The notes beneath the pieces were generated by a model. It saw only the letters and a list, made by a program, of their open reading frames with translations. It did no database searches and was not told the origin of the DNA. A program made the position numbers and the translations under genes. Positions 593-46,389 of a stretch of DNA of 64,000 bases are shown piece by piece. The first letter of the stretch is position 1, and the number at the start of each line of letters is the position of its first letter. The stretch is taken from assembly GCF_004010195.1 (NCBI RefSeq), contig NC_057755.1:8683685-8747684 (forward strand). The letters run 5' to 3'. Source of the DNA: Chiloscyllium plagiosum (Eukaryota).

Positions 593-809
593 ACAACTGC
601 GATGTGGATGGTGTAGTGAATGATTCCCTGGCAGGGGTTGTTAACCTGGTCAATCAGGGACCCATGTTGACAGGTATAAACAGGAGGGTCAGGTGTTATG
701 TTCACACTGAGAGCTCGCGCTGAGGAAAACAGATTAGTGTCAAGTACTTTACGAGAGTAAATAAAGTGTGACTTCGTGACGGGAAACCGACGTCTGTGGA
801 GGTATTTCA
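593..809 (+). mobile_element. 5' LTR of Gypsy element copy A (empty TATA site)
   Basis: Homologous to LTR copies at 28385-28610, 40935-41140 and 45645-46057; TATAAACAGGAGGGT at 675-689, AATAAA at 760, ends ...TTTCA. Confidence 0.75.
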
Positions 810-3443
810 TTGTTGATGACAGTGAGGTTAGTGATGTATTCATGCAAAAGTGCCTACTCTCTGAATTCCAAGCAATTCAATCAGAGATTTAAAAAGGCTT
901 TGTTATTCAGAAATGCATCAAGTGGAGCTTAACAGTTGCCGGGTATGCCGATGAAAATGAACACTCCCACCAAGACAACTGGGCTTTCAGGACATCACTT
1001 GAACATAGAACATAGAACAATACAGCACAGAACAGGCCCTTCGGCACACGATGTTGTGCCGAACATTTGTCCTAGCTTAAGCACCCATCCATGTACCTAT
1101 CCAATTTCCGCTTAAAGGTCACCAAAGATTCTGACTCTACCACTCCCACAGGCAGCGCATTCCATGCCCCCACCACTCTCTGGGTAAAGAACCCACCCCT
1201 GACATCTGCCCGATATCTTCCACCCTTCACCTTAAATTTATGTCCCCTTGAGTGAAGCAATTGCTTCGCCTCAGGACATATCCTGAACAGATGGACTCAA
1301 AGTAAGTTCACACCAAAACCCCAAAAGAAAGCCAAATCTTGGCCAAGCCTTTAACATTTTCTTCAGGATCTGAGCAAGCAAGCCATTGTAGTTGCTACTG
1401 AAATGCGGTCTTGTGTCACTAAAAGAGTCCCACGATGCCTGAAGTGAGTAAGAGAACTAATAGGCCGGTATTCAGGAGAGTGCACACCCTGGACAACCCA
1501 CCTGCTACTTTCTTGAAATTGCTTAGCAACATTCAAATTAGAAGCAAATACAATAAACGTCTGTTTAAATAGTCACCAGGTACTAATGGAGTAGATACCA
1601 GTACAGCTCTATCAGAGATTGCAGAATCAATTTTTAACAAAGTTCACTTGGGATTCCAACGCTTACGTTTGCGTAAGATCTCAGCTAGAGTGAGTGCCTA
1701 TCTTGGGGACCCTTTACAGATTTAAGGGTCACCTTAAGTTCTGGGCTCGTATGAGAAGCAGCTGGTTGGGTTTCCACTGATTGTAGTAAAACGAATCAGG
1801 CCCAAGGATCATGCAGCAGAATTCATTGAGAACGATTTACTTTTGTTGGCTGAGCATTTTACACTTAGAAAATAGCTGTTTGGGTGAAATCCCGAAAGAA
1901 ATATCCAGAGCTTTTTCTGGAATGTCTAGGGATTACCAAAGGAGCCAAGGCGAACTTGCATTTTGACCATGAAGCAATTCACCGATTCTGCAAGAGCTAC
2001 CCAGTGCCATTTACACAGAAGGGAAAAGCAGAGGCAGAAATCAAGAGAATGGAAAGGGAAAGAATTATGAAACCAATACAATTTGCAGAATGGGCAGCAT
2101 CTGGCGTACCAATTGTGAGACATATCGGTTGGTTTGCAATTGAGAGAATTTCAACCTAACTGTAAACCAATTCTCACAACTGGATAAGTACGCACTTTAT
2201 AGAGAACAGCATTTTATTATGGGGCGGAAGAGGGATTGTCCCGAGCAAATATCTCCCCCAGCGCCTGTCTGAATACCAGCCGGAGCATCCACTGGTTTCC
2301 AAAATAAATACTTTGGCGTGACGTTATGCCTGGTGGCCAGGAGTGGATGCCAACATAGCCATGTTCGTGGGGTTGTGCTCAGAGTACCAATAAGGATAAA
2401 GCTTACTGCCAGCATGTACGATCTTACTCATGGAAATGGCTCTTTAAACCCTGAACTCGGTTACACGTGGACAATACCAGTCCTTTCATGGGTGTTTGGT
2501 TATTGTGGATGCCCATTGAAGGTGGTTATAGTTCATTTGGCAATCTCCATGATGATGATTGTGAGCATTATCCATGCGACATGGACTTTCAGAAGTATCA
2601 GTCATGGATAATGGGTCAGCGGTTTGCAGCAGGGATATTGAATTTTTGCTCTTATCGCATGGTGTTAATCAAGTTGCCGCCACTAGGTACCATCCATTGT
2701 CCAATTGTCTGGTCAGGAGTGCAGTCCAGACATTGAAGCAGGCTTAAAGAAACAGCGCAGAGTTTCACTTGTGACCAATCTGTCCCAGTTCCTGTTACAT
2801 TATTGGTCCACCTCTCATGCAATCAAGGAAAGCTCCGGCAGAGTTGCTGATGGGGAGAATACTCTGCACCAGGTTAAACCTGATATTCCCTGAATTGGGA
2901 GGCGGCGAGAGAGAAACAGCAACAGGAGCACCAATATGAGCCACATACCTCCTCTAAGCAAGACAAACATTTTTCGTAGGGAATGACATTCAGTGTCAAA
3001 ACCAGGGAAATGGCCCTGCATGAGTACGACGAGACGTAAATTCGAGGTCAGGTCCTGCAACTTTCAAAGTTTGGGGAGGTGAGGCAGTCCTGAACAAACA
3101 TGTCGATCACATGAGAGCTGTTCCTTTGCCAACGAGGTAAGAGCAAAACATACCTGTCCCCTCAGAACAACCAAAAAGTCTGTCAGGAGCCGTGCTCTTA
3201 CCCTTTGTTACAAATCGAAGAAACCTCTGAGTCTGAGATGGATGTAGCCTCGATACTCTTACCACTTATCGAAGAGGAGAAAACTATCCCGACATGCTCT
3301 CGGGGTAAGAGATGATTTATGGTCCAGTAAACGTCACCAGTGTCCGAGTCAGAATCACAGGAACCAGAACTGGGTGAAAACATCCCAGGCGAAGCTACAA
3401 GAGGAAGAGCAATCGTACATCTTCGGACTTTGTGGAGGAGTAA
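810..3443 (+). mobile_element. Degenerate, internally deleted Gypsy (K02A2.6-like) gag-pol region, copy A
   Basis: ORF 1884-2159 resembles the RT N-terminus (FCKSYPVPF...MKPIQFAEWAASGVPIV); integrase-like remnants at 2400-2900; purine-rich tract before the LTR at 3430-3443. Confidence 0.78.
1001..1250 (-). mobile_element. 5'-truncated CR1/HER1 LINE 3' end inserted in the Gypsy internal region
   Basis: Near-identical reverse complement of 331-592; ORF 1072-1260 repeats the C-terminus of ORF 39-512; CTTGA on both flanks. Confidence 0.93.
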
Positions 3444-4080
3444 TGTCGTCATTGGAACGAGCGCCAGGTAGATCACTGACTATGAAATCCTTGGCAAGGA
3501 TCTGGCCCAATCAAGGAACCCTGACTGACAGAGTTTAACTGGAGAATGTCACTACTAAGTGATCGTCCCTCTTCTGCAGTCATGTTTGAGGCCGGATGTC
3601 CTTGGAGAGGGAGCATGCGGTGTCCACCAATGCCCTCGATGCCTTTTGGGAGAGGTTGTCACTGTGGGGGATAGAGTTTTCATTTCATCTTTTCCTTGCC
3701 CTTTTGTTTTCTCAGGTAGGCCTTGTCCGTATTGGACTTTGCTTCTTCGTGGTTTCATGGCCACATGAGTGTTTTACTGATGGCGAATTACAGCATAAAT
3801 TTCTTGAGCATTGTTGTCTTTTTTTACTGAGTCTGTGTCAACACACACACAGCTGCAGGTGTATGAGTGGTGTGGGGGAAATACAAGCGCTACAGCTGTG
3901 TAGTTGTCGTGTTGGGAATATATCAGCCAAAAAGTAAAAAGGAAGGTAAAGAGAAAACACAGGAGGGTTTCCTCACTCTAGGCACTGGCTTTGAGAAAGC
4001 TGGTTAGAGCCCACATACTGTGCGCTTGTAAATAAAGGGTGACTTGTTGAAGGGGTTCCGGCCTCTATACAGTTATTTAA
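3444..4080 (+). mobile_element. 3' LTR of Gypsy copy A, interrupted at the TATA region by a Tx1 fragment
   Basis: Starts TGTCGTCATTGGAACGAG; aligns with 34114-35877; LTR resumes at ACAGGAGGGT (~3958) and runs to AATAAAGGGTGAC...TTATTTAA. Confidence 0.75.
3548..3957 (+). mobile_element. Old 5'-truncated Tx1-clade LINE (ORF2 end, 3' UTR, A-rich tail)
   Basis: SLEREHAVSTNALDAFWERL matches SLEKEHTLSTNTLELFRERW at the end of the full Tx1 ORF2 (18400-18460). Confidence 0.8.
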
Positions 4081-4254
4081 ATTAATGCATTCTATTGTTA
4101 TGAATGAGAATTGATTGGAAAATCGGAATTGGAGTAAAGAAGAACAAGGAACAGATTGAGTCTGCCAGGTTTCTCAAGGGAGGAAGCTAAATACACAAAT
4201 GTTTTTAATCCGTTAGATGAGCACAACTTACCAGGGTAGGATATTTGCTCTGTG

Positions 4255-9552: not shown

Positions 9553-9605
9553 TTGTTATCTTGAGCCATTAAAGCAATCCTGGTTGACAGATATCAACCG
9601 GGGGT

Positions 9606-11213
9606 TTGGAGAAAAGGACAATGTTAATTTTATGGAAAGGCTTAGCCCTTGGACTGTAGTTTTCTTTGTTTTTTGTATGTGCCTTCACTTTTTTTATTCG
9701 TGTTAGGACTGAGCCCTGTGGAAGACATACATTTTACCAGAGAAGCTGTTCCTGTGGGGAGGCCTAGCCCTGGAGCTGGTCTTCTGAAGATTGAACACCT
9801 GTATGTGTGCTGGGAAGTGAGCAGTTGCTGTATCCTGGAGTTTGGGAGAAGACCTTTCCTTCAGGAGTGGACCAAACCCCTACTATGTACTGTGTTCTTG
9901 TGAGTGGGCCTGGCTCTCCAAGGCTGGACCAGGACTCCATTGAGAGTCAACACCTGTGTGCTGTGGGGTGTGTATTTGCTGCCTCCAGGAGTGGACTCTG
10001 CACTTGGTTGTGGACTGTTTTTAACAACGTACTCTGCAGTTCGGAGCGGCCTCTAATTCTGACATTGCACAATGTATACTGGAGTGGACTCTTCCTGGAA
10101 ATTGATTCCATATCTTGAAGACTGTAGAGATTTGGACTGTGTACCAGAAAGGAGTTTTTTTTTTTGGGTAACAAACTGTATTGTGGTGTTTCCTGGGTCT
10201 ATCACCCACACTGTCTTGCGTGTCCCTGGGTCTGGCAGGCCTTGCTGTGAGCTGGGAGGCTCATGGGTCGTCCTGAAAGCTGTCATCCCGAGAGCCGGAG
10301 TGTGGGTAGGCCATCCTGTGAATCTGAAGGTTGGTAGGCTGCCCCAAAGGCCGGAGGGTGGGTATGCCACCCTGATGCCAGTCGCCCCGAGAGCCAGATG
10401 GTGGGTAGGCTGTTCGGAGCACTGTCGTCCCGATAAGGGGTAATCGGGACGGGCTGTCCTAGAGGTGGCCGAAAGGTGTCAGAGCAACTGAGAGCCAGAA
10501 GACGCGTAGGGGCGGGCTGAGATCCGGAAGGCTTGTGGGCTACCCTATACGCTGTCGTCCCAGGGTAGGGGACGGGCTGTCCTCGAGGTGGTCGAAAGGT
10601 GTGCCAGGATAGCCCACTGGTCGGAGGTGCAACGGGGTGGGTGAGAGCCCAATGGTAGGTAGGGGCAGACCGAGAGCCAGAAGGCGGGTAGCCGTCCTCA
10701 GCACTGTACCGGGGCGGGCTGCCGCAGAGGTGGTCGGAAGGTGCTGAGGGTGGTCAGTGAAGCCGGAAGATGGGTATGCCGTCCTGACCGCTGTCACCCC
10801 GGGCGGGTACCAGGGCTGGCTGTCCTAGAGGTGGTCGAAAGGTGTGTCAGGGCGGACAGAGAACTGGAAGGGGCATGGGGTGACCGAGAACCGGAAGGTG
10901 GGTAGGGGCGGGCTGCCTTAGAGTGGTCGGAAGGTGGGAGGGGTGGGAGCTTGCTGAGTCTGTATTGTCGTCACTTTTGTATGTAACAGTACTGTGTAAT
11001 GTACAACTGTCATTGCTGTTGTTTCTTTATATCTTTATGTGAAACTGGGATTTGAGGTTTGTCCTCATGTCCCTGTAAACTGTTTGAATGGTAGAGTTTG
11101 GGGCCTGGCTTTGCTGCTCCTCTCCCTTGTAAAATTGCTATCTCTTGTATGCAGCTGTAATTGTAACTGTTTATTGTAAACTGTTTTTGTAATTTGTTTG
11201 TTTAATAAAATAA
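9606..11213 (+). mobile_element. Unclassified non-coding, A-tailed retroposed insertion
   Basis: Flanked by the imperfect duplication ATATCAACCGGGGGT (9591-9605) / ATATTAAACAGGGGT (11214-11228); T-rich 3' region ending AATAAAATAA. Confidence 0.55.
10260..10950. repeat. GC-rich imperfect minisatellite-like array
   Basis: Recurrent GGGCTGTCCTAGAGGTGGTCGAAAGGTG and GAGAGCCAGAAGGTGGGTAGG modules. Confidence 0.7.
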
Positions 11214-11389
11214 ATATTAAACAGGGGTCTTTTGATGTGAAGGGCAGTGCTTGTCACTGGCCACTCGGGTGTTTGCCTATCTTAAGAGTTGGAGCAGTGT
11301 GAGAGTGTGTTTGTACGTGCAAGGACTCTTCTCCTTGAAGGGGACTGTCCCTGGACTAGCTGAAGAAGGAAGAAGAGGAGGAGGCAGAA

Positions 11390-12200
11390 GCAGAAGGAGG
11401 TGAGAGCTTTTGAGTCTGGGGCCTAGTTTGGAGCTGCAGCCTGGGCCTCACCCAGGTCAAGGGAGTGTTGCTGCTGACCTGGGGCACACTCCCACTGCTG
11501 GCAGAAGGAGGTGAGAGCTTTTGAGTCTGGGGCCTAGTTTGGAGCTGCAGCCCAGGTCAAGGGAGTGTTGCTGCTGACCTGGGGCACACTCCCACTGCTG
11601 GTCTCTGGGACCCCGCCCGGACCTGCCTCAGCTGTTGCTGCTTGGAGCCTGCCTCACTGCTGCTGCCTGGGACTTGCCTTGTGGTCCCTCCCTGGACCTT
11701 CACCACTGTTGCTGTTGTTAGAGGCCCACCTCCACTGCTGCTGCCTTTGACTCAATTTTGGGGCTGCCTGGGACTTGCCTTGGGGACCCACCCCAACAGG
11801 TCTGCCCCCCACCGCTGCGACCGAGGGCCTGCTTAGGACTTGCCAGACGCCTGCCTCCACCACCGCTGCCTGGGACTCGCCTTGTCCCCTCCCCAGGACC
11901 TCCACCACTGCCACTGCTGGAGGCCTACCTCCACTGCTGCTGCTGGCTGGGACTCAATTTTGCGGCTGCCTGGGACTTGCCTTGGGGACCCTCCCCAACA
12001 GGTCTTCCCCCTCCCCATCGCTGCGACAGAGGGCCTACCTGGGACTCTCCAGAGGCCTGCCTCCACCGCTGTTGCTGCCTGAGGCCGGTCTCCACTGTTG
12101 CTGCCTGGGACTCGCCTTGGGTGACTCGCCTTGGGCACCTCGCCACAACCTCCACCATTGCTGCTGCCAGAGGCCCACCTCCACCGCTGCTGCCTGGGGC
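11390..12200 (+). repeat. Internal repeats of the Tx1 5' UTR
   Basis: Tandem ~110-bp duplication at 11390-11500 / 11501-11601, then many CTGCCTGGGACT(T/C)GCC modules. Confidence 0.8.
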
Positions 12201-12222
12201 CTACCAATATCCAGCAGCAGAG

Positions 12223-14470
12223 TATGGCGAGCCGGAAGGTCGCGGGGCCCAGCCGCACCTATGCAGGAGTAGTCGCTGCCTTAGGCTCAGCTGTTCCAAC
12301 CCCTGTCACAACTGCAACCCCCTTCAGGCACCTGACTAAACGCCTGGGGGGGAAAGGCCTATCCCCACCCCAACATGTCCATTGAGGCCTGCAGCAAGGC
12401 CATGGCTAGTGTGGTCGGCCCGGATGTACGGGAAGGCCGTCTTTTTCCTTAAGACCGAGCAGGTGGTCCACCTGGCCGTGGAGAGGGGGCTCACTGTGGG
12501 CGGGACACATTTGCCCGTCGACCCTTTTGAGGTCACGGCCCAGAGGGTCGTGATCTCCAACGTCCCGCCCTTCATTTCAAGTGAGCTCCTTCTTCCCCAA
12601 TACACCACCTTGCGGAAAGATGCGGTCAGGAGTCGAACCGCTCCTGCTTGGTCTTAAGGATCTCGCCCTCCGACACATATACTCCTTCCGCCGCCAGGTG
12701 TTTATTTGCCAGACCCGGGAGGATGTCACCGAGGGCTCTTTCACCCTCCTCCATGAGGGCACGGCCGACCGTGCCTTCTGGACAGCGGTCGGCGTGCGGT
12801 GCCACCTGTGCTGCGAGGTGGGGAACATAAGAAATAACTGCCCCACCCAGAAGGCTGCCCAACACACGCCACCGTCTACTGTGGTGCCGCCACACCCACT
12901 CCCCCTCCCCCGAAGTCAACACCACAAGCCTCGGCACCGGCGGCTAAGCCGGAGGCTTCCAATGCTCCAGCCTCTGGCAGGGAGGGGCGATGGCTTCTGT
13001 CCAGCCAGAAGTCGCTGATGAAGACGCGACACGTCAGGCCCGCCCACGGGGAGACCACCCTATCCCCTTTCCCGACACCTTGCCCACGACCTGCCCCGCC
13101 CGGGAACGACAATGCCCCTGCGGCCGTGCCAGCGTCGCCCTGGCGTGGCAACACTGACCCCCAAACACCCAAACCCGTGCCTGATCCTGGTCCTACTGAC
13201 CCCACATCCACTCCCCACCCTGATAGAGAAACCCCTGGGGCTTCAACACCTGCACCTGGCGCTGTTACACCTGGCCCGGGGGACCCTGATCCCGAGCCCC
13301 GGCCCACCCAGCCACACCCTGGCACTAACCTGGGGGGGACCACCGCTGCCCCACCTCCTGCAGCGACCGTGTCTCTGGGCCCCAGAGAGGGAACTGGGCC
13401 CCTGCCCCGCCCGCCATTACCTGATAAACCGGGGCGAGGCAGCAAGTGACACGGCTGACCCTCCCCACCCTGACCACGCCTCCTGTCTTCCCCCAGTCTA
13501 TCATATTCTGGGAAAGGCTGGGGGGAGGGACCTCGGGCCCCATGACCACCAAGGCGGGCGGGGAGCGGAAGGCCCATAAATTCCCTCCTGTCTCTCTGGG
13601 GAAGAGGCACCAGCCCTTGGAGGGGAGAGACACTCCAGCAGCACTGCCCCTCTCCAGGGGACGAGCAACGGTACCTTTCGATTGTCCCGCACCGCGGCCC
13701 GACCTACCCAAACCCCCAGGGGATACAGCATGGCCTCCTGCTGCCTCAACTCCTCCGGCCCCTGGAGAGGACTTTAACAACCACGAGGGCGGTGGTGCGG
13801 GTGACAACGGAGGACCCTCTGGTGGGTCATCGAGCGGTGGAGGGGAGGAAGGTGTTATCCTCGCTCCTCCCTCCCAGACTGTTTTTCTTGAGGTCTTGCC
13901 CCTGGGGGAGGACCTGTTCACCGAAGAGCCAGGCGTCCCAGTGTCGGGAGAGGAGCGGGCCCCGAACCTCTGCCGCCTGACAACCCGAACCCGGGACATT
14001 CCGGGAAGGCGTGCGCCCAGGATGGTACCGCCAGTGACCCTGGGGGTGGGGTCGCCGGGGGTTTGAAACCAGTTGGCGGCGCCGGACCAGCCCCCATCCT
14101 CTTGGTGGGGGTGGGGTCGGTGACTGAGGGCGACCTCCCGGAGGAGGGTTCGGGATCGATGGCGGACACCGGGGATGAGGCCGACTCTGTCTGCAGTGAC
14201 ATTTTCGAATCCCAGGTGCCCCCCACCGATCTCCCCCTCATCCCCCTTGAGCAACTTCGGGAATTTGTCGAGGAATCTCGGAGTCACCGGGATAGAGTCC
14301 AACTGGCGCTCGACCGCTGGAGCTCCTTTGAAAGAGTTTACTGGTCGGCCCACGCTGCTCGCCAGGCGCCTGGCTCGATGTCAATGAGTGAAAGCGAGTC
14401 AGGAACTTCCTGGGGGCACTCCTGGTGAGGGCGAGGGACTTCTGTGCCCCTCCCTGTAAATGTGTAGATA
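12223..14470 (+). pseudogene. Tx1 ORF1 (gag-like, zinc knuckle, Pro-rich), frameshifted
   Basis: MASRKVAGPSRTYA start; ARMYGKAVFFLKTE, VVISNVPPFI, LRHIYSFRRQV; degenerate knuckle CHLCCEVGNIRNNC; split across several frames. Confidence 0.8.
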
Positions 14471-14520
14471 GGTTTTTAACTATACTGGTGGTGGTTGCAC
14501 AACGCTTCCGACATGGAGAC

Positions 14521-14541
14521 NNNNNNNNNNNNNNNNNNNNN
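14521..14541. other. Assembly gap (21 N) with overlapping flanks
   Basis: 14433-14520 is repeated almost exactly at 14542-14639. Confidence 0.95.
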
Positions 14542-14631
14542 GAGGGACTTCTGTGCCCCTCCCTCGTCCTCCCTGTAAATGTGTAGGTAGGTTTTTAACT
14601 GCACTGGTGGTGGTTGCACAACGCTTCCGAC

Positions 14632-17600
14632 ATGGAGACAACGATAGCCAGCCTCAAATCAACGGCAGCAGGGAGTCACAGCGCAGATTCCAGGCCCTCT
14701 CGGTCCTCTGGGATGGGAGGTATGCGGTGTGCTTCCTGCAAGAAACCCACACCACCCCGGGAGACGAAGCCACCTGGCTCCTGGAGTGGCGAGGGGGGGG
14801 GGGGGGGTCTACATGAGTCACCTCACCCACAGATCTGGCGGGGTGGCTATCCTGTTGGCCCTGCATTTTCAGCCAGAGATCTTGGGGGTCAGGGAGCCCG
14901 TGCCAGACCGTTTGCTTCACCTGACGGTTCGGCTGGGGAGCGCGGTGATTCACTTGGTGAACGTCTACACTGCCCTGGCCGGGCTGAGGCAAGCGAGCTT
15001 CTTTGAAGAAGTATCCACTCATCTTGCTTCCATCGACGAGGACCAGTGCGTTGTCTTTGGGGGAGATTTTAACTGTGTCCTTGAGGGCAGGGACCACGGC
15101 GGTGCCCGCACTGGCTGGGCGTCGGGGAGGAGGTTGGGGGACTTGGTCAAGTCCTTCGACCTGGTGGACGTCTGGCGGAATCTCCATCCCGACTCCATCG
15201 CCTTCACCTTGGTAAGACCTGGGGTCAGAGCGTCTAGAATCGACCGCCTGTACATTTCGCGGGCGTACGCCTCCTGTTTTCTGAAGGCCTCCACGCAGCA
15301 GGTGTCGTGCTCGGACCATCACCTGGTGTGAGCGGAACTCCTTGTGTTCGGCGCCAGGCTCGGCTCCGTGTACTGGCACTTTAACAACCTGCTGCTGAAT
15401 GACGAGTGGTTCCGGGATTCGTTTCGTCATTTCTGGGCCGGCTGGAGAAGGAAGCGGGGAAGCTTCCCCTCCCTGAGGCTATGGTGGGAAGTGGGCAAGG
15501 CTCACGTCCACGTCTTCTGTCAGGAATACGCGAGGGGGTTGACGAAGAGGCGGAAATCCAGGATCGTGGAGTTGGTGAGGGAGATGCTCGACCTGGAGTC
15601 ACGCCTCAGTCAGCCCGACGCGGACTCGGCCCTGCGTGGGGTGTACGAAGAGAAGAAGGCCACGCTCTGGGACCTGCAGCTCGTCGGGGCTCAGGGCGCG
15701 TACGTGAGGTCGCGGATCCAGCTCCTCCAGGACCCGGACCACGGCTCCCCCTTCTTCTACTCGCTGGAAAAAAGGCGTGGCACCCGTCAGCAGTTCCTTG
15801 TGCTGCTGGCCGACGACGGGTCCCTCGTCTCGGATCCGGAGGGCATCAGGGCCCACGTCCGAAACTATTACACGGTTCTGTTATCTCCGGATCCGTCCAG
15901 CGAGGATGCTCGCAAAGTTCTGTGGGAGGACCTGCCACAGCTCAGCCCGGAGGACGCTGTAAGGTTCGACGCTCCCGTCACTTTAGAGGAGCTGACCGGC
16001 GCCCTCGACGGCTCTCGAGGGGCAAGTCCCCGGGGCTGGACGGGCTGACTGTGGAGTTCTTCAGGGCGTTCTGGGGCGTCCTGGGGAGCGACTACGCACA
16101 GGTCCTGTCTAAATGCCGGAGAGCTGCCCCTTTCTTGGCGCAGGGCGGTCATCGTCCTGCTGCCAAAGAAGGGGGACCTTCGTTCCTTGAAGAGCTGGTG
16201 TCCAGTCTCCCTCCTCAGCAACAGGACTATAAAATCTTCGCCAGGGTGTTGTCTTCTCGCCTGGCTTCCGTGCTGGCCCACATGATTCACCCAGACCAGT
16301 CCTACACGGTCCCGGGCCAGAGGATACACGTCAACGTCCACCTGGTCCGGGACCTGATCCATTTCTGTCGATTGGGTTGGTCTGCCGAGCGCCTTCCTGT
16401 CTCTTGACCAGGAGAAGGCATTCGACAGGGTCGATCATAAGTACCTGCTCGGGACTGTGCGGGCATTCGGGTACGGGACGTAGTTTCTCGCCCGATTCCG
16501 ACTTTTGTACGCCGCCGCAGAGTGTCTGGTTAAAGTTAACGGGTCCTTGACGGCGCCCCTTCGCTTCGGGAGAGGAGTGCGTCAAGGCTGCCCCCCTGTC
16601 CCGCCAGCTGTATTCCCTGTGCATAGAGCCTTTCCTGCGCCTCTTGTGGAGGAGGTTGTCAGGGCTGGTTCTGCGCGGCGCGGGCACGGGGGTGGCCTCT
16701 CGGCCTACGCCAACGACGCGCTCCTCACTTTCACCGACCCAGCTGACCTGGGGTGGATGCGCGAGTGCCAGGCCGTGTATTCGGCAGCGTCCTCCGCCAG
16801 GATCAATTGGGCCAAATGTTCCGGACTACTGGTCGGTCCGTGGCGGGTGTACTCTCTGCTGGAGGAGTTACGGGGGTTCAGCTGGAGTACCACCCATCTC
16901 TCTACCTGGGGGTCGACCTCAGCCCGGCCAAGGAATCCTGGCCGGCCAACTGGCAGGAGCTGGAGGCCAAAGTCTCAGCTCGCCTAGGCCGCTGGACAGG
17001 ACTGCTCCGAGTGCTATCTTACAGGAGTCGAGTGCAGGTCATAAACCAGCTGGTGGCCGCCATGCTGTGGTACCGGCTGGTCACTTTGGTCCCTCCTCCT
17101 GGCTTTGTCGCTGACATCCAGAGAACGTTGGTCGACTTCTTCTGGGACAAAAAGATTCACTGGGTCGCTGCGCAGGTTCTGAGTCTCCCTATTGAGGAGG
17201 GCAGTCAGTCGCTGGTGCGCGTCCGCAGCCATGTCGCGACATTCCGCCTTCAGACCTTGCAGTGATACCTTTACGTCGAGCCTCCTCATAGGTGGTGCGC
17301 CCTGGCAACGTATTTTTTCCGCCAGGTGCGAAGCCTCAGCTGCTGTTCATCGACCGTGACGGTTTTGAGGTCGCGCTCAAGACGCTGCCTGTCTTTTACC
17401 AGGACCTGATCACTGTCTGGAACATGGTCGAATCGTGCCGCGCCTACCCTCCGGCAGGAGTAGCGCCTGTTGTCAGGGAGCCATTGCTCAGGAATCCGCA
17501 CCTCCATACTCGCGGTTCGAGTGGCTGTCAGAGGAGAGGGCCGTGGCGGCGAGGGTGACCAGGGTCGGGGACGTGCTGCGTGCCAGGGGCTGGGCTGGAC

Positions 17601-18510
17601 GCTACCGCAGGACATAACGAGCAGGGCAGCGGTAGATATCCGGTACTTGGCCACCGCCATCCGACGCCTTAAAACGGCGGTCCTCGTACCCGACGTAGTG
17701 CACCAGTTGGAGGACGCTCAGGTGTGCAGTGGGATCCCGTCCGTGCTCACCCCAGCCCGGACGGAATTTCACATTGGCCCCAAGGTCCCGTACTTCCCGC
17801 GGAAGCCTGTGCCCCACAACCTGAGCCGTCTCCGGAATTTTAATTTTGTTCCCTTTCAGGAGGTAGAAAGGAGGGCTCTGTATAGAGCTGCTGCACACCG
17901 TCCACCTCTTCTCCCTCATCCACCGTCCGGACACGCCTTGGCGTGCCCAATTGCCACCGGGCGGTGGGGATCCCCAGTGGAGGGCTCTCTACGTGGGTGT
18001 CCCCCACCTTTCTCTCAGGGATCTGGGGTGGAGGGTGCTGCACGCAGCAGTCCCCTGCAACCGCAGGTTGCAGTGGTTCACGGACTCCCAACCCAACTGC
18101 TTGTTCTGTGGCGCTGTAGAGTCCGTGGATCACGTGTATATTGGGTGTGGGCGTTTGCACTTCCTTTTTGATTTTCTGAAAAACCTCCTCCTCTGCTTTT
18201 GGTTGCACTTCAGCCCACGCTCCTGATCTTTGGGCACCCGGTACGGAGGAAGAAGGGCAGGTCTGAAGATCTCCTCGTGGGTCTGCTCCTGGGCCTGGCC
18301 AAACTGGCCAGTAACAGGTCCAGGCAGCGAGCCGTGAAGGGGGTCGTTAGGGCCGACTGCCTGCCCCTCTTCCGCGGTTATGTTAGAGCCCGGGTGTCCT
18401 TGGAGAAAGAGCATACGTTGTCGACGAACACCCTGGAATTGTTCAGGGAGAGGTGGGCGCCACAGGGAGTGGACTGCATTGTTTCTCCCTCCAACTCTAT
18501 TTTGATTTAG
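14632..18510 (+). pseudogene. Tx1 ORF2 (APE endonuclease, reverse transcriptase, CCHC), with stops and frameshifts
   Basis: FLQETH, GGDFNC, SRIDRLY, SDHHLV (endonuclease); KSPGLDGLTVEFF, GVRQGCP, SAYAND (RT); CLFCGAVESVDHVYIGC. Confidence 0.9.
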
Positions 18511-18770
18511 ACCCTACCCTCCCCTTCACGGTTTTGATCACACAGCACTGCCCTTTGATATGAAGGGCAGTGTTTGTCACTGGCCATCCGGGCGTTTTCC
18601 TATCTTCCTGGTGGTGGAATTTGAATAAAGATTCGTGCACTTTGTGTCTTTCACTGTGTCTCACACCTGCACACATACACCATGGGTGCTGGGGAAAAAA
18701 TAAGCATTACCGCAACTATGTGAAAAAAAAGAAAAAAAAAGAAAAAAGAAAAAAAGAAAAGAAAAAGAAA

Positions 18771-18950
18771 AAGGTTCTTGCATAATGCGTTATTTTTTAT
18801 GGAATCTGAATACACACACACACACCCACACACACCCCGCCAAAACTATGGGGGAAATATCAGTGCTGCTGATGTGCAGCGGTCAAGTAAGAGATAAAGT
18901 AATGAAAGGAGAGAAGGGAAACAAAGAAGAGAAGGGAAACAAAGAAAAGA
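18771..18950 (+). mobile_element. 3' part of an older Tx1 3' UTR (its 5' part lies at 11229-11283) into which the full-length Tx1 inserted
   Basis: 11229-11283 matches Tx1 3' UTR 18552-18606; 18771-18950 aligns with the old Tx1 tails at 3800-3957 and 34500-34653. Confidence 0.7.
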
Positions 18951-20034
18951 ACAGAAGGGCCTCCTCACTCCCAGCACTGGCTTTGAGCTGGCTGGTTTGA
19001 GCCCGTGTACTGTGTGCTTGGTAATAAAGGCTGACTAGGTGAAGGTATACCGCCCTCTGCGCATTTATTTCAGTTAAATAACAGTATTCCATTGTTATGA
19101 ATGAGAATTCATTGAAGACCTGAACTGGAATAAAAGAGAAAAGTCGTTTGTGTATTGGCAGATTGATTCCCAGAGTGTCAGAAGGGATGATGCTAAATCC
19201 ACAATTATTTTAGTAAGTTACTTGAGCACAAGTTACCAGGTCATATGATTTGCTTTGCGCAATGGTGCAGGCATTGGGGCTGTGCCGACATTGATCGCTC
19301 ATCCCTAGTTGCCCCTTGAAGTTGGCGCAGTGTTGCATCTTATCCACATGTTGGTAGGCTGACCCACAACGCCCTGAGAGAGGGAATTCCAGGATATTGA
19401 CCGAATGACAGTGAAGCAATAGGGATTTATTTGCTGTCGAGATTGTGAGTGATTTGGAGGGGAACGTGCAAAGGGTGCTGTTCCCATGTATATGCTGAAC
19501 TTGACTGGATGGAAGTAGTCGCGTTTTGGAAGGTGTTGTCTCAAGGTCTTTGGTGAATTTCTGCAGTGCATCTTGAAGAGTTGTTATTGAGCAGCAGTGT
19601 TATTGAGCAGCAGTGGGGGAGGGCTGGACTTTTGTGAATGTAGATACAATCAAGTGGGTTGCTTTTTCCTGGATGGTGTAAATAATTTTCTTTATAATTA
19701 GCGTCAATACTCAGTAATTCTTTAACAGTGAACGTTGGTGCTGACTCTCATTGTTCAGGGAGCTGCTTTGATCTGCTGAGGCCAGTGACCATCCAGTGTG
19801 CATTGAAATTAATATGCCCTGAAATGAACACGGAAAAGTAACATCAAGCGTCACAGTGTAAGACAGGAACTGAAATCTAAGCTTGTGTTTTGTAACAGCT
19901 TAAACAAATCAAAATGTTCACCCAAAGAAGGAGTTTCATGAATGTTGACAATGTGGTAGTTTCAATGATGGATAGTGCGATGAGAACAACTGAACAAGTT
20001 GTGTTTTGGAAACAAGGACAGAGTCTGAACGTGG

Positions 20035-24519: not shown

Positions 24520-24735
24520 TTTATGGCGATGGGAACGGGGTAAGCCAGGGAGCTCTTGAAGAATATGAGATCCCTGATTGAGGCTGTTGACGTTGTCCAA
24601 TCGGGGAGCCCCGTCTGACAAATTTAAACAGGAGGGTGAAGATTTCTGTTCACTCTGAGACCTGGCTCCGAGGAAATCAGATCATGCGATATCTGATGCA
24701 CTTGTAAATAATGGTGAATTAGTGATGGGTCCATG
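24520..24735 (+). mobile_element. Gypsy LTR-family copy in the intron (empty site TTTAAACAGGAGGGT)
   Basis: Aligns to 593-809. Confidence 0.65.
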
Positions 24736-28384: not shown

Positions 28385-30145
28385 TTTAATGCCAAATAGG
28401 ATGTGGTTGAATTCCTGATTGAGTTCCCTGATTGGTGCTGTTAACCTGGTCCAACAGAGAGCCCTGGCTGACAGATATAATCAAGAGTGGCGGGGGATCT
28501 GGTCGCTCTGAGAGCTGGCTCTGATGAAATTGCACCAGTGTCAGGTACTTTACACATATAAATGAAGGTGACTTGGTGACGGAATATTGACCTCTGTGGA
28601 GGTATTTCTTTGACGACGGGTTTGGAATTTGTGATGTATTCATGCAAAAGCACCTACTAGCTGAAATCCAACTGGACTTCAAACAGGCATTTCAAATGGC
28701 TTTGTCAGTCGAAAATGTGGTAATTGGAGCATGTCAGTGGACAGTCTCGCCAGACCAATTTGGCTTTCGGAAACCCCCTTGAGTGAACGCAATCGCATCT
28801 CCTCAGGACACATTGTGAGCAGATGGTCCCGAGGTCAGCTCACTCCAGAACCCCAAAACAAAGACAAAACATGGCCCAGCCTTGAAAACTTGCTTCAGGA
28901 TCGGAACCAGGAAGCCATTCCAGTTGCTGCTGGGATGTGAACTTGTGAAAATGAAAGAGTCCAAATTACCTTGAATGAGTAAGAGACCTCGTATGCCGGT
29001 ATCCAGGAGACTGCAGAGCCTGGAAAACTCATCTATAGCTGGCTTGGAATAGTTGAATTCCTTAACAATATCCAAATCAAAACGAAATCAAATTAAATAT
29101 TTGGTTAATTGGTCATCTGGTTCTAATGGAGGTAAATATAAGCACAGCTGTATCAGTGATTACAGAACCAATCTTTACAAAGTTCGCTCTGGACGCCACC
29201 TCTGAAGTTCGTGTTAGATCTCAACTACACTGAAAATCTCAGGGAACGTTTACACATTAAGAGGATAACTTCGTTTGCGATCTCATTTGAGAATTGTGAT
29301 TAATTTGGATGTCCATTTAAAGTGGTTCGAGTTCATTTGTCAAACTCTGTGATGATGATTGCAAAGTTGTGAGCATCATCTGCAAGACACAGACTCCCTG
29401 AAGTATTGGTGACGGGCAATGGGAAGTCATTTTCCACAACTGATATCGAATATTTTCTGAAGTTGAATGGCATTCGGCATTTTCAGGAAGCTCCATGCTA
29501 TCCACCACACAATGTTTTGGTGGAAAGAGCAGTCGAAACACTGAAGGCAGGCATAAAGGAACAGCCCAGAAGCTTCACTGGATGCCAAACTCTCCTGTCC
29601 GATTATTGCACGACCTCTCACACAAGAGCAGCGATAGCTTCAGGAGAGTTGCTGATGGGGAGAAGATCTGCACCGGGGTTTAAACTTGATATTCCCAGAC
29701 CGTGGGTCAGCTGAAATAGCATCAGGAGCGCGAAGACCAGGCACATGCCTCCTCTAAGTGAGAGAGACCAATTCTTTTGGGGGGCGAAGTTTGCTTTCAA
29801 AACTAATGGTCCTGTATGGTTTCAAGGTGCGATCGTTGCGAGGTCAGGTCCCATGATTTGCAACGTTTGGTTAAGTGAGGCAGTCCTGAACAAACGTGCA
29901 GATCATTCTTGTTCCCGTCAGAATAGCCAGTACCGTTGTCAGAATCAATGGGTTTTCATGTCTGTCTAGCGTTGAATGAATCTGCAAAGGTGAGTTGGAT
30001 GCAGCCTCCATAGCATTGCCATCTGAAGAAGAGGAGGAAACTTTCACGTGACAATCTGGTAGCAAGTGACAGGTTACGGTCAAGTAATTGTCGCCTGTGC
30101 CCGAGTCAGAGCTGGAGGAAACAGTCCTGGGGTGAAAAAGGAACA
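28385..30145 (+). mobile_element. Gypsy copy B: 5' LTR (28385-28610) and deleted internal region with integrase remnant
   Basis: ORF 29406-29714 VTGNGKSFSTTDIEYFLKLNGIRHFQEAPCYPPHNVLVERAVETLK is an rve-type core; colinear with copy A. Confidence 0.8.
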
Positions 30146-34066: not shown

Positions 34067-34113
34067 ACAAGAGAAATAGGAGGTGAGAATCCCCGGTCTT
34101 GGTGGGGGAGTAG

Positions 34114-35877
34114 TGTAATCATTGGAACGAGGGCCAGGTTTGATCCCACTGACTATGAGATCCTTGGCTGGGGCTGTAAACATGCGAAAATTATGGAGTT
34201 TAACAGGAGATGGTCTCTGCTGAGAGCCTGTCCTTTTTCTGCAGTGATGTTCGAGACCGGGTGTCCTTCGAGAGGGAGCATGCAGTGCCCACCAACACTC
34301 TTGATGCCTCTAGGGAAAGTTTGTCACGATGAGGAATAGAGTGCTTTATTTCCCCCTGCAGATCAATTTTCATTTGGTCCTTACACTTCCCTTCCTTTTC
34401 ACTTTCTTTTCTCACGCACACCTTACCCCTTTTGGACTTTGCTTGTTAATGACTACCTGGCTACATGGATGTTTTTCCTGCTGGTGGAATTATACCATGA
34501 AGTTCTTGTGCAATGATGTCTTTTTTTATTATTGAATCTGTACACACTCACACAGCTACAAGGACATGGGTGATGTGGGAGAAATATAAGCGTTACTGCT
34601 GTGCATTGATCATGTCGGGGATGATCAAAAGGGAAAGGAAATAAAGAAAAAAAGTGGGTCTCCTTACTGTAGGCACTGGCTTTGAGTTGGTTGGTTGGAA
34701 CCCATGTACTGTGTCCTTGCAAATAAACCGACCGACTCCCACAGCTACCTAGACTACATCTCCTCCCAACCTGCCCCCTATAAAAACGCCATCCCATATT
34801 CCCAGTTTCTTTCCCTCTGCCGCATCTGATCCCAGGAGGACCAGTTCAAACACCGAACAACTTAGATGGCCTCCTTCTTCAAAGACAGCAATTTCCCCCT
34901 AGACGTGGTCGACGATGCCCTCCACCGCATCTTCACCACTTCCCGCTCCTCCGCCCTTGGGCCCCGCCCCTCCAATCTCCACCAGGACAGAACCCCACTG
35001 GTCCTCAACTACCACCCCACCAACCTCCATATACACCGTATCATCCGTCGTCATTTCCGCCACCTCCAAACGGACCCCACCACCAAGGATATATTTCCCT
35101 CCCCTCCGGAAATATAAAACTTGGGCCCACACCACTCCCCTTACTTCCCTCCAAGGCCCCAAGGGATCCTTCCATGTCCACCACAAATTCACCTGCACGT
35201 CCATATACATCACTTACTGCATCCGCTGCACCCTATGTGGCCTTCTCTATATTGGGGAGACAGGCCGCCTACTTGCGGAACGTTCCAGAAAACACCTCTG
35301 GGACACCCGGACCAACCAACCCTACTACTCCATGGCTCAACACTTCAACTCCCCCTCCCACTCCACCAAGGACATACAGGTCCTTGGACTCCTCCATCGC
35401 CAGACCATAGCAACACGACGGCTGGAGGAAGAGCGCCTCATCTTCCACCTAGGAACCCTCCAACCACAAGGGATAAACTCAGATTTTTCCAGCTTCCTCA
35501 TTTCCCCTCCCCCCACCTTGTCTCATTCCCAACCCTCGAACTCATCACCACCTTCTTAAGCTGCAATCTTCTTCCTGACCTCTCCACCCCCATCCCACTC
35601 CGGCCTATCACCCTCACCTTATCACCCTCACCTTTACCTCCTTCCACCTATCGCATTTCCAAAGCCCCTCCCCCCAAGTCCCTCCTCCCTACCTTTTATC
35701 TTAGCCTGCTTGACACATTTTCCTCATTCCTGAAGAAGGGTGCATGCCCGAAACGTCGATTGTCCTACTCCTTGGATGCTGCCTAACCTGCTGCGCGTTT
35801 CCAGCAACACATTTTCTGGTCCTTGCAAATAAAGGATGATTTAGTGAGGGGATACCGCTCTCTGTGTAGTTATTTCA
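34114..35877 (+). mobile_element. 3' LTR of Gypsy copy B, interrupted by a Tx1 fragment (34211-34653) and a Penelope element
   Basis: PPT GGTGGGGGAG precedes TGTAATCATTGGAACGAG; aligns with 3444-4080. Confidence 0.75.
34728..35818 (+). mobile_element. Penelope-like element, 5'-truncated, with GIY-YIG endonuclease and pLTR
   Basis: FTCTSIYITYCIRCTLCGLLYIGETGRLLAER..H; 15-bp TSD GTCCTTGCAAATAAA at 34713-34727 and 35819-35833; hammerhead motif at 35726-35761. Confidence 0.9.
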
Positions 35878-40934: not shown

Positions 40935-41340
40935 CCATCATTGCAGCAATGGGAACGTGAGTTCCATGATGAGGGCTGTTAACCTGATCTAATCAGGAAG
41001 CCCATGCTGATAGATATAAATAGGAGTCAGGGCTTCCTTTCACTCAGAGAGTTGGCTCTGAGGGAGCTGGATTAGTGTCAAGGACTGTCCATGTATAAAT
41101 AAAGAGTAACTTGGTGACGGGACACTGGCCACTGTGGATTTATATTACAGGGAGTCTACTGTTCTTGATCTGGTCTTGATCTAAATCTGGAACTTCCCTC
41201 TGAAATGGCCTAAAAATAAAAAAAAAAACAAGCAGGAGTGTCCGGGTTTTATTGACTCTGAGAGCTGGCTCCAAGAAAGCCGGACACGTGCAAATAAAGA
41301 GTGAATTGGTGATGTGATACCAGCCTCTGAGGAGTTCTTT
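40935..41340 (+). mobile_element. Gypsy LTR-family copy (40935-41140) plus a second LTR 3' half preceded by an A tract (41212-41340)
   Basis: GATATAAATAGGAG at 41013; A run followed by CAAGCAGGAGTGTC..ACTCTGAGAGCTGGCTCC..AATAAAGAGTGA. Confidence 0.65.
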
Positions 41341-43214
41341 AAACATTGTCTTGGTTTCAGCTAAAGGCAACACATACAGCTACGATGCAAATATGCAATT
41401 GACTGCAACTGAAGAATTATCAACTTGTTCCAATAAATTAAAGCAATTTCTTAACATTTGCCTTGTTGAGGCAAAAGTAATTTTCGGCTACAGATTTGGG
41501 AGCGACATTATGCTGAGCCACACCGAGATTCTGATGAAAGAAATAACTGCTCTTTTTTTTATTATTTCCTTTTGTGAGATATTGAGCTCCAACTGAAGTC
41601 TGGATCATTTTAAATCAGAGAAAGACTCGATCTATACAGGTAGCTTCAAGGATAAAGGGGTAGAACATGGGGAATTTACTTTGCCTCTGAGCTACAGAGA
41701 CCCGTTTCTCTTTAATGAGACATGTGTCCACAATCCAATTAATAATGTTCATTAAACTGTTATCTGATGTGAAGCATCGTAAGTCTTACGTTGCTTTTCA
41801 ATCATGGAGTCGTACCAACGTACAGCACAGAACCAGAGACATCAAACTAGCTCATCCATGCCAACCGGGTTTCCCAAACTAAGGTCGTTCTATTTTCTTG
41901 CGTTTGGGCCCATTTCCCCCTAAAATGTTTCTATTCATGTACCTGTCAAAATATATTTTTAAATGTTGTAACTGTGCCTGCATCCATCATCTTCTCTGAC
42001 AGTTCATTCCACGTAAGAATCACTCTCTGTGTGAAAAACCTACCTCTCAACGGTGTTTTAAATCTTTCTTTTTTTATCTTTAAACTTATGGTCTCCTGTT
42101 TTGAGCCTCCTCGCACATCTGAGAGAAAATAACTTTACTTTTCATATTATCCTTGCCCCTCATGATTTTATAAATCTCTGGAAGGTTACTCCTCAGTCTC
42201 CAACGCTGCAGAGACAATAACTCAAACCTTCCAGTCCTGGCAACATCTTGACCAATTTTAACTGAAACCTCTCAAATCCATTAATATGCTTTCGATAGCA
42301 AGTGGCCAAGACTGCACATTATTCCAAAGCTAGATTCACCAACGCTTCGTACAACGGCAACATGACATCGCAACAACTATATTCAATGATCTGAGCTATG
42401 AAACACGCCAAGTGCCTCCTTTATCTACCTGTGACACAACATGCAAACAAGTATGTACCTGAATACTAAGGTATCTCTGTTTGACAACACTTCCCACGGC
42501 GCTTCCATGTACTACAAAAGCCCTGCCCTAGTTCATCTTACCAAAATGCATCACGTCACTTTTATCTAATTTATGTTCCATCTGCCACGCCTTGGCCAAT
42601 TGACCAAATTGATCAAGATCCCTTAGTTATGTCAGATAACCATCACAGTCTGCTTTACCACTAATGTTGGTGTCATTTGCAAACGTAATAACCATATTTC
42701 AAATGAATGTCTTCTCTCACATAGTAGTAAATGTCAGGAATTCACCGCCCAGAAAATTTTGGAATCCAGATCCCTGAAATTATTTAAGGCAGAGATCGAT
42801 AGAATTTTGAAATATCGAGGAGGTCAGAGCTATGTGGAGCTGGAAAAAAAGAAGTATTGAGACTTAGGTCAGATAAGCCATGACCTTATCGAACAGCCAT
42901 CAGTCTACTTTGGTTCCTGTCTCCATGTCTTTATATCATATCAGGAAATTTTTAAGATCATGGAAGTGTAAGAACTCATGCTTTGGAGAAGATCAACATA
43001 TGACAGGAAGAGCCTCAAACGGAATCAGCAAAATAAACTTAATGTGCCACCATGTTCGATCTTTGAACTATTAGAAGAAATATGGTTAAGAACAGCAGAG
43101 TGCCGATCTCCAAGAAGAAGGCATTAAGGACCACGCTCAGAAATGGAACCTTTGATGTGGGGAGACGAAATATACAAAGGTAGACAGAAACCAAGCCACC
43201 GCTTGGGGTTTGTA

Positions 43215-45644: not shown

Positions 45645-46389
45645 TTTAATGCCAACTAAGATGTGGGTATTGCAGTGATTGAGTTTCCTGATTGGGGCTT
45701 TTAACCTGGTCCAATCCGGGAGCCCTTGGTGATGGATATAAACAGGAGGGTACACACACACCATGGGTGCTGGGGATAAAATAAGCACTACCACACTTAG
45801 GTGGTAGTGTAAGAAAAAAAAGACAAAAAAGAGAGAAAAAAAGGGGAGGTCCCTCACTGTTTTGATCACACAGCAAAAGAGAAGAACAGGAGTGATCACT
45901 GTAAAAAAATAAATAAATAAAATATAAACAGGAGGGTCAGGAATTCTGCTCACTCTGACAGCTGGATGTGAGGAAGCCAGACAAGTGTCAAACATTTTGC
46001 ATGTGTAAATAAAGGGTGATTGGGTAACGGGATACCAACCTCTGTGGAGTTAATTCACTGGCGAGCAGAGTGAGATTAATGATGTATGCATGCAAAAGTG
46101 CCTTACCAGCTGAAGTCCAATTGGACTTCAACTAGGCATTGCAAATGGCTTTCCCTTTGAAAACTAAGCAAGTAGAGCATATCAGTTGCAGGTTATGCTA
46201 ATGGAAGTGGATACTCTCACGAGATCAACTGGGCTTGCAGGGCACCACTTCAGTGAAGGCAATTGCATCGCCTCTGGACATATTTGCTTGGAACTCCGAC
46301 TCCTCAGTTTATGTAAGACATTGGCTGTACTGAGAACCTATTCCTGAGAACATTTTCAGGTTAAGGGTACAACTTCGGTTCCAGTCTGC
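45645..46389 (+). mobile_element. Gypsy copy C: 5' LTR (to 46057) and start of the deleted internal region
   Basis: Colinear with copies A and B; PBS-like TGGCGAGCAG right after the LTR. Confidence 0.75.
45752..45921 (+). mobile_element. Stack of short Tx1 3'-end insertions in the LTR with a perfect 16-bp TSD
   Basis: ATATAAACAGGAGGGT at 45736-45751 and 45922-45937; the insert matches Tx1 3' UTR 18672-18720 and 18521-18547, with A tails. Confidence 0.85.

Follow-up and report, generated by a model that had tools for sequence, protein, structure and literature searches.

What leads a LINE of the Tx1 clade to settle repeatedly at one point of a Gypsy-type LTR, and which signal places its cut there? 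The question is raised by a filled LTR in a 64,000-nt stretch of Chiloscyllium plagiosum DNA (hereafter the window; features are numbered from its first letter and lie on the + strand unless stated otherwise). By BLAST, the sequences flanking the insertion at 45736/45922 are the two halves of one LTR of about 235 bp. The left half (45680..45751) matches unfilled LTR copies at 75-85% and contains a CCAAT box at 45711..45715, 27 nt upstream of the target's ATAAAC when measured from the first C, a spacing that recurs in most filled LTRs. A second, reversed CCAAT box (45691..45695, - strand) displays no link to filling. The right half (45922..46057) starts with the right copy of the target (45922-45937), carries AATAAA at 46008 and terminates in CA, followed by the PBS-like start of an internal region.

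The initial annotation had described Tx1 3'-UTR sequence inside a perfect 16-bp target-site duplication at this place. The duplication is real: 45736-45751 and 45922-45937 are the same 16 bases, ATATAAACAGGAGGGT, the left copy spanning the TATA-like motif, and the sequence has 4 matches within 2 mismatches across the window versus 0.10 expected. Tx1 3' end sequence is also present, but the enclosed 170 nt turned out to be three stacked A-tailed Tx1 pieces, set apart by worn target copies, rather than one insert. Unit 1 (45752..45843), aligned to locus L036, is a 5'-truncated Tx1 3' end with its A tail, 82% identical to the genomic copy, tail included. Unit 2 (45851..45893) comprises 25 nt of Tx1 3' UTR, 92% identical to window positions 18523-18547, an A tail and a worn target copy. 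Unit 3 (45894..45921) is a 9-nt piece, below the length assignable by alignment, with an A tail.

The host repeat has the features of an LTR retrotransposon. Its LTR, bordered by TG...CA and containing a TATA motif and a poly(A) signal, was found in 18 unfilled copies of 217-238 bp; a PBS-like motif stands behind 7 of these 18, and an exact 5-bp flanking duplication surrounds 2 of the 11 copies without PBS-like continuation. The order protease, RT, integrase was assembled from separate decayed loci (L104, L107 and L115), the protease and integrase Pfam matches lying under the curated cut-off and the RT piece having Ty3 RT as its best PDB match (E 8e-19). No open frame longer than 176 aa was found in the 20 host loci examined, and the host copies seen are decayed. 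The earlier assignment to a Gypsy-type host is supported by these LTR ends, by the domain order and by the Ty3-nearest RT, and is more probable than one to BEL/Pao.

The inserted element belongs to the Tx1 clade, as had been proposed. The natural EN+RT frame of L193 shares 53% identity with Xenopus TX1 ORF2 over 93% of EN+RT, and in an RT tree of 28 rows (27 of 120 hits, without a named L1 outgroup) the query groups with a sturgeon protein, Xenopus TX1 and two turtle proteins at 100/99 support; another comparison gives 51% over 949 aa. Pfam recognized only zf-CCHC, APE (Exo_endo_phos) and RT (RVT_1) in three natural open frames, and neither a Myb nor a C2H2 domain was matched in them. The ORF1 zinc knuckle is a zf-CCHC match under the curated cut-off (E 0.002), and in ORF2 the APE endonuclease occupies the N terminus and is followed by the RT. 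No uninterrupted full ORF2 was seen, the frames of L192, L193 and L199 entering assembly gaps or starting late. Tx1 insertion by TPRT, with APE endonuclease and RT, is established, and the copies examined here end in an A tail, are variably truncated at their 5' end and are bordered by target-site duplications, which at sites outside the LTR measure 14-16 bp in 33 of 53 cases.

The window contains several other copies of the same LTR. Unfilled ones lie at 620..812 (box changed), 24528..24729 (box intact, TATA changed), 28420..28614 (box changed, decayed Gypsy internal sequence behind) and within 40953..41343, where a whole LTR with CTAAT as its box is followed by 80 nt of other sequence, an A tail and a second right half; the box is thus changed in 3 of the 4 unfilled LTRs. 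The target motif had been reported as intact in all four: it is exact at 675 and has one mismatch at 24623, while at 28475 and 41014 it is absent within 2 mismatches, both nevertheless being LTR copies by BLAST. Similarly, the insert suspected at 41212 is an A-tailed piece (41150-41229), but not of Tx1 sequence. An ancient Tx1 insert (about 3548-3957) splits the LTR at 3441..4082; its duplicated copy lies at 34111..34727, with the remaining LTR at 35824-35880. We agree with the previous view that the inserts at 3548 and 34211 are a single event copied by segmental duplication, to which the remnant with a right LTR half at 18772..19074 also belongs (65-70% alike by alignment). To the left of this remnant stand two further elements (9607-18771). 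The insert noted at 9606/11229 occupies the same LTR site, with a left LTR remnant at 9579-9612, but its portion 9607..11215 represents a separate, apparently non-coding A-tailed family, here called element B. It is followed at 11230..18771 by a near-full-length, frameshifted Tx1 copy ending in an A tail, with a head from its own 3' UTR, ORF1 pieces, endonuclease (14648-15331), RT pieces and 3' UTR (18510-18725); Pfam found no RT in the frameshifted pieces of this copy. At a larger scale, window positions 3-46250 are made of old segmental duplications, 63-79% alike, each with a copy of the Gypsy remnant.

To get a global view of the insertions, the 3.56 Gb genome was searched with the Tx1 3' end. 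One 34-nt pattern gave 2,976 exact matches, and three samples, 191 clusters in total, were picked by the Tx1 3' end alone, ignoring flanks: sample 1 took every cluster (71) present in the first 100 matches of this pattern; sample 2 took 60 of the 80 matches of a variant, after exclusion of small contigs, of three clusters already known and of the final six; and sample 3, drawn from 100 listed matches out of 203 to a further variant, took the first 60 clusters not yet sampled. LTR sequence touches the insertions at the target site on one or both sides in 104 clusters; by eye, the 5' flanks of two of these, L153 and L318, do not look like LTR. A further 55 clusters have a duplication at other places, and 32 allow no call either way. 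The duplication is about 14-15 bp long, its ends being blurred by A runs. All 632 units scored in stacks lie on one strand, with 0 on the other. Seen from the LTR side and by eye, filling is found at 20 left junctions out of 100 listed, and at 32 right junctions out of 95. A Tx1 family is considered target-specific when more than 20% of its flanks are of one sequence type (PMC4494074), a level exceeded by the 104 of 191 LTR-flanked clusters. The initial annotation had proposed independent, same-strand insertions at the TATA position of the LTR, and a flank check of a genome-wide 3'-end query bears it out, the flanks being enriched in LTR and not just generic sites. Descent from a single ancestral insertion is ruled out by differing truncation points and flanks. 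Two other kinds of site were encountered: insertions just outside the LTR 5' end in reverse orientation (L206, L215) and, by eye, one insertion behind a 5S rRNA-like and one behind a tRNA-like sequence (L160:2760-2884 and L246:2980-3067).

Where the element inserts is therefore as first described. How the place is found is probably different, since insertion is tracked by the CCAAT box 27 bp upstream. Sites outside the LTR are informative in this respect, and 53 of them with a duplication of at least 11 bp (2 shorter ones dropped) were compared with a background of 473,654 positions with matched cut context. Ten of the 53 have an exact CCAAT 26-29 bp before the duplication versus 0.3 expected, each sample contributing (3/17, 4/20 and 3/16); the lead had been recorded before sample 2 and the test fixed before sample 3. 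Within one mismatch, the box is present at these distances in 23 of 53 sites versus 4 expected. The peak is narrow, with 13 sites at exactly 27, 3-4 each at 26, 28 and 29, and a mean of 1.5 at other distances, and it coincides with the spacing in the LTR. Among all 5-mer/window pairs tried (34 sites), CCAAT at 26-29 ranks top. Reversed boxes occur at only 1 of the 53 sites, and nothing was found downstream. Two of the exact sites, L130 and L151, belong to one other repeat, and the rest show no mutual BLAST similarity. A repeat different from the LTR, with CCAAT and TATA at the same spacing, was likewise hit at its TATA (5' flanks of L130, L151, L277 and L185).

At the cut itself, the off-LTR sites have only a T|A-rich step in common, and their duplications agree with the LTR motif at some 5.5-5.8 positions out of 11. 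Local sequence contributes to site choice too, since 30 of the 53 sites lack a box-like 5-mer at 26-29 and six insertions (L128, L177, L201, L285, L294 and L310) cluster in a short stretch of the element B 5' region, on its reverse strand, where a second hot spot carries a local look-alike of the target. No compensation by a better local match was seen where the box is absent (5.5 vs 5.8 of 11, P 0.59).

Filled and empty LTRs differ in the same box. In most filled copies, 27 bp separate the first C of CCAAT from the start of the duplication, and the box is intact in 73 of 91 filled versus 13 of 36 empty LTRs, after out-of-register rows (14 filled, 3 empty) were dropped. Mismatches per site within the box amount to 25/455 (5.5%) in filled and 39/180 (21.7%) in empty copies (P 1e-8), whereas upstream control columns are close to each other (133/1183, 11%, vs 63/468, 13.5%; P 0.2). 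The reversed box 20 bp further up is intact in 48 of 91 filled and 19 of 36 empty copies, 53% in both, and filled LTRs show no better conservation of the TATA/target columns than empty ones. Restricted to unbiased loci, the intact box counts are 49/60 versus 9/26; in an independent list of empty LTRs, obtained with an R-region 16-mer, 28 of 63 have it intact by eye, and 30 further loci with few filled copies gave 2/3 versus 6/14 (P 0.58).

The same question can be asked in the other direction. When only LTRs without a mismatch in the 24-bp target region are scored, by eye, filling amounts to 27 of 100 for an intact box and to 56 of 341 for a changed box (P 0.02). The effect of the box on filling is thus graded, and changes that arose after insertion are mixed into this contrast. 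According to the changed position, filling is 14/100 for C1, 14/81 for C2, 5/37 for A3, 15/72 for A4 and 8/51 for T5; only C1 is significant alone, and A4 changes show almost no drop. Two single-position tests against unselected filling gave no difference (13/88 and 28/160 vs 20/100; P 0.44 and 0.63); the fair yardstick for such tests is the intact-box set (27/100), against which the pooled difference is modest. Box retention is not higher at worn targets. In the LTR list, C1 is unusually often changed (148 copies vs 571 intact) and A4-to-G is common; these changes could reflect variation between LTR subfamilies, or intact boxes could have been selected against.

The order within stacks gives another view of the signal. 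If the upstream signal were retained by the left target copy only, stacks would be expected to grow at their left end. Divergence is indeed lower in the 5' unit than in the 3' unit for 76 of 106 stacks (P 9e-6), and for 49 of 63 stacks with the LTR left half. The stack order points to an upstream determinant, without telling which one. TATA, or TBP bound to it, was rejected as determinant: TATA columns are equal in filled and empty LTRs, and box-bearing off-LTR sites occur without TATA.

From these data we are confident that the positional rule, insertion about 27 bp from CCAAT, is real. That the box itself positions this Tx1 LINE, most likely via NF-Y bound there, appears to us somewhat probable on sequence evidence. 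In such a mechanism the endonuclease itself would need only a T|A-rich step, and the box upstream would hold the nick 27 bp away. The Gypsy LTR would be the main target by offering, in many copies, a CCAAT box and a suitably spaced T/A-rich TATA. Once an insertion has occurred, the box would remain with the left target copy alone, so that later insertions would pile up there, and full-length copies could then be transcribed from the LTR promoter, which would account for 5' heads resembling the LTR and for element B as a passenger. In its full form, a vertebrate LINE that docks on NF-Y and cuts 27 bp off, behind a ready promoter, with the LTR as its commonest landing pad, this is a tentative proposal.

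Who reads the box is the point on which the possible explanations diverge. NF-Y is a plausible reader, with a chance that we place just short of even. Around the ten exact boxes outside the LTR, position -2 is a purine in 10/10 (background 0.47), position +2 is A in 7 and position +3 is G in 6. NF-Y prefers a purine at -2, A at +2 and G at +3. Its NF-YB subunit sits about 15 bp downstream of CCAAT, and NF-Y binds LTRs in closed chromatin (PMC3730095); CCAAT-bearing LTRs have been linked to germ cells in mammals (PMC12065363). On the other hand, 13 off-LTR sites have a one-mismatch box, by our own arithmetic some two times the number expected from background and subsequent decay together, and since NF-Y requires all five core bases (PMC3730095), they lean to a more tolerant, direct reader. 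Direct read-out of the box by the element comes close behind NF-Y, and is likewise less likely than not. The ORF2 protein would then read CCAAT as R2Bm reads its RUM at -34 to -22: the geometry is alike (PMC10499050), single changes are tolerated (the 13 near-matches, and 16% filling with a changed box) and the flanks also fit the LTR's own CCAATCAG, yet R2 uses an N-terminal ZnF/Myb module and an R2-specific RT loop, no such domain was found here, and at -2 and -1, which are G and T/G in the LTR, A prevails in the off-LTR flanks.

The box could also act with no dedicated reader, the NF-Y-bound promoter opening or bending DNA and a loose endonuclease cutting the first exposed T|A past the footprint. 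A graded box effect, a merely T|A-rich cut context outside the LTR and the asymmetric binding of NF-Y (PMC3730095) would all be compatible with it, but the narrow and strictly oriented peak and the lack of effect of the reversed box 20 bp away make it improbable. We give still less credit to recognition of TATAAACAGGAG by the endonuclease, the mechanism first assumed for this family. The Tx1L endonuclease alone does nick almost only its target (PMC1950540), 104 of 191 clusters lie at the motif, and L219, L242 and the element B hot spot resemble it. However, this recognition predicts neither the CCAAT peak nor the stack polarity, off-LTR duplications match the motif at only about half of the positions, and target columns are no better kept when filled; it is thus very improbable. 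Positioning by the CCAAT box, possibly through NF-Y, is the preferred reading.

Preference for LTR retrotransposons is shared with the crocodilian families Tx1-8_Crp and Tx1-4_AMi (Kojima 2015, PMC4494074). The passages of that article on them give neither site, sequence nor mechanism, and their targets may appear in its supplementary figures S3-S4; for the shark element, site, duplication, stacking and CCAAT rule have been measured. LTR homing by Tx1 is thus already known, and the fixed-distance CCAAT rule is what is new. For APE-type LINEs, the choice of target is generally attributed to recognition, by the endonuclease, of the bases that it cuts (PMC4494074, PMC10499050). This holds for the closest named protein, Tx1L of Xenopus laevis, a member of the same clade that also targets a transposon, the DNA transposon Tx1D, and whose specificity is attributed to its endonuclease reading the nick bases (PMC1950540); in the shark element local specificity is loose and the signal lies 27 bp away. 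Other transposon-targeting Tx1 families, the frog Tx1L relatives and the crocodilian ones, may share the CCAAT rule.

TRE5-A of Dictyostelium is likewise an APE-type LINE inserting at a set distance from a promoter site; damage to the promoter box abolishes its targeting, and its ORF1 protein binds TFIIIB (PMC5911963). It differs in its Pol III gene targets and its window of 40-54 bp, compared with a Pol II promoter box, a distance of 26-29 bp, a vertebrate host and a graded effect in our case. R2Bm also has a bipartite target, one part of which lies some 22-34 bp upstream of the nick on the bottom strand, and it is sensitive to spacing (PMC10499050), but it employs a restriction-like endonuclease and Myb/ZnF readers on 28S rDNA, whereas the shark element has an APE endonuclease and none of these domains was found in it. 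Among the titles and beginnings of abstracts searched, none described a LINE whose insertion is placed by CCAAT or by NF-Y.

The genome counts point to a targeting signal two and a half helical turns upstream of the cut. If NF-Y is its reader, a promoter factor of Pol II would position a LINE, whereas the precedent that we found involves Pol III factors in amoebae; if ORF2 reads the box directly, APE elements would possess an R2-like second recognition module. With either reader, the rule accounts for one-sided array growth, predicts insertions at CCAAT promoters of host genes and provides a plain test of how Tx1 families switch transposon targets.

Insertion behind the LTR promoter may have left traces in the elements themselves. 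The 5' heads of two Tx1 and two B copies (L220, L195, L005 and L246) align to the LTR just past the target, above shuffles; the head of the window Tx1 copy (11285-11400) gave no alignment to unfilled LTRs above shuffles (34 vs 35). At L010 an A-tailed copy of the R region of the LTR starts 30 nt after TATA, the one case of this kind. The LTR-like heads and this retrocopy are indirect support for use of the upstream LTR promoter, which the initial annotation had suggested and which we infer with caution. In one poly(A) single-cell run, reads of the family fall mainly over the 3' UTR and are assignable to no copy or promoter; a second run gave no such reads.

Many full-length Tx1 copies are headed by their own 3' region, which suggests a chimeric master copy transcribed from upstream. 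In several of them (window 11230-11284, L142, L143, L178, L197, L199 and L200), a variable piece of the ORF2 end and 3' UTR is fused at one point to the 5' UTR.

Element B, about 2 kb long, A-tailed and with an LTR-like start, occupies the same target site (window 9607-11215, L005, L246, L205, L018 and L177), and Pfam gave no match in the one frame of 9607-11215 tested. With its head probably derived from the LTR, it may be a non-autonomous element carried along by Tx1, as a counterpart of SINEU. Other A-tailed pieces at the target consist of LTR R region or read-through sequence (L010:1450-1600, L012, L020, L023 and window 41150-41229), and are likely LTR transcripts copied in trans.
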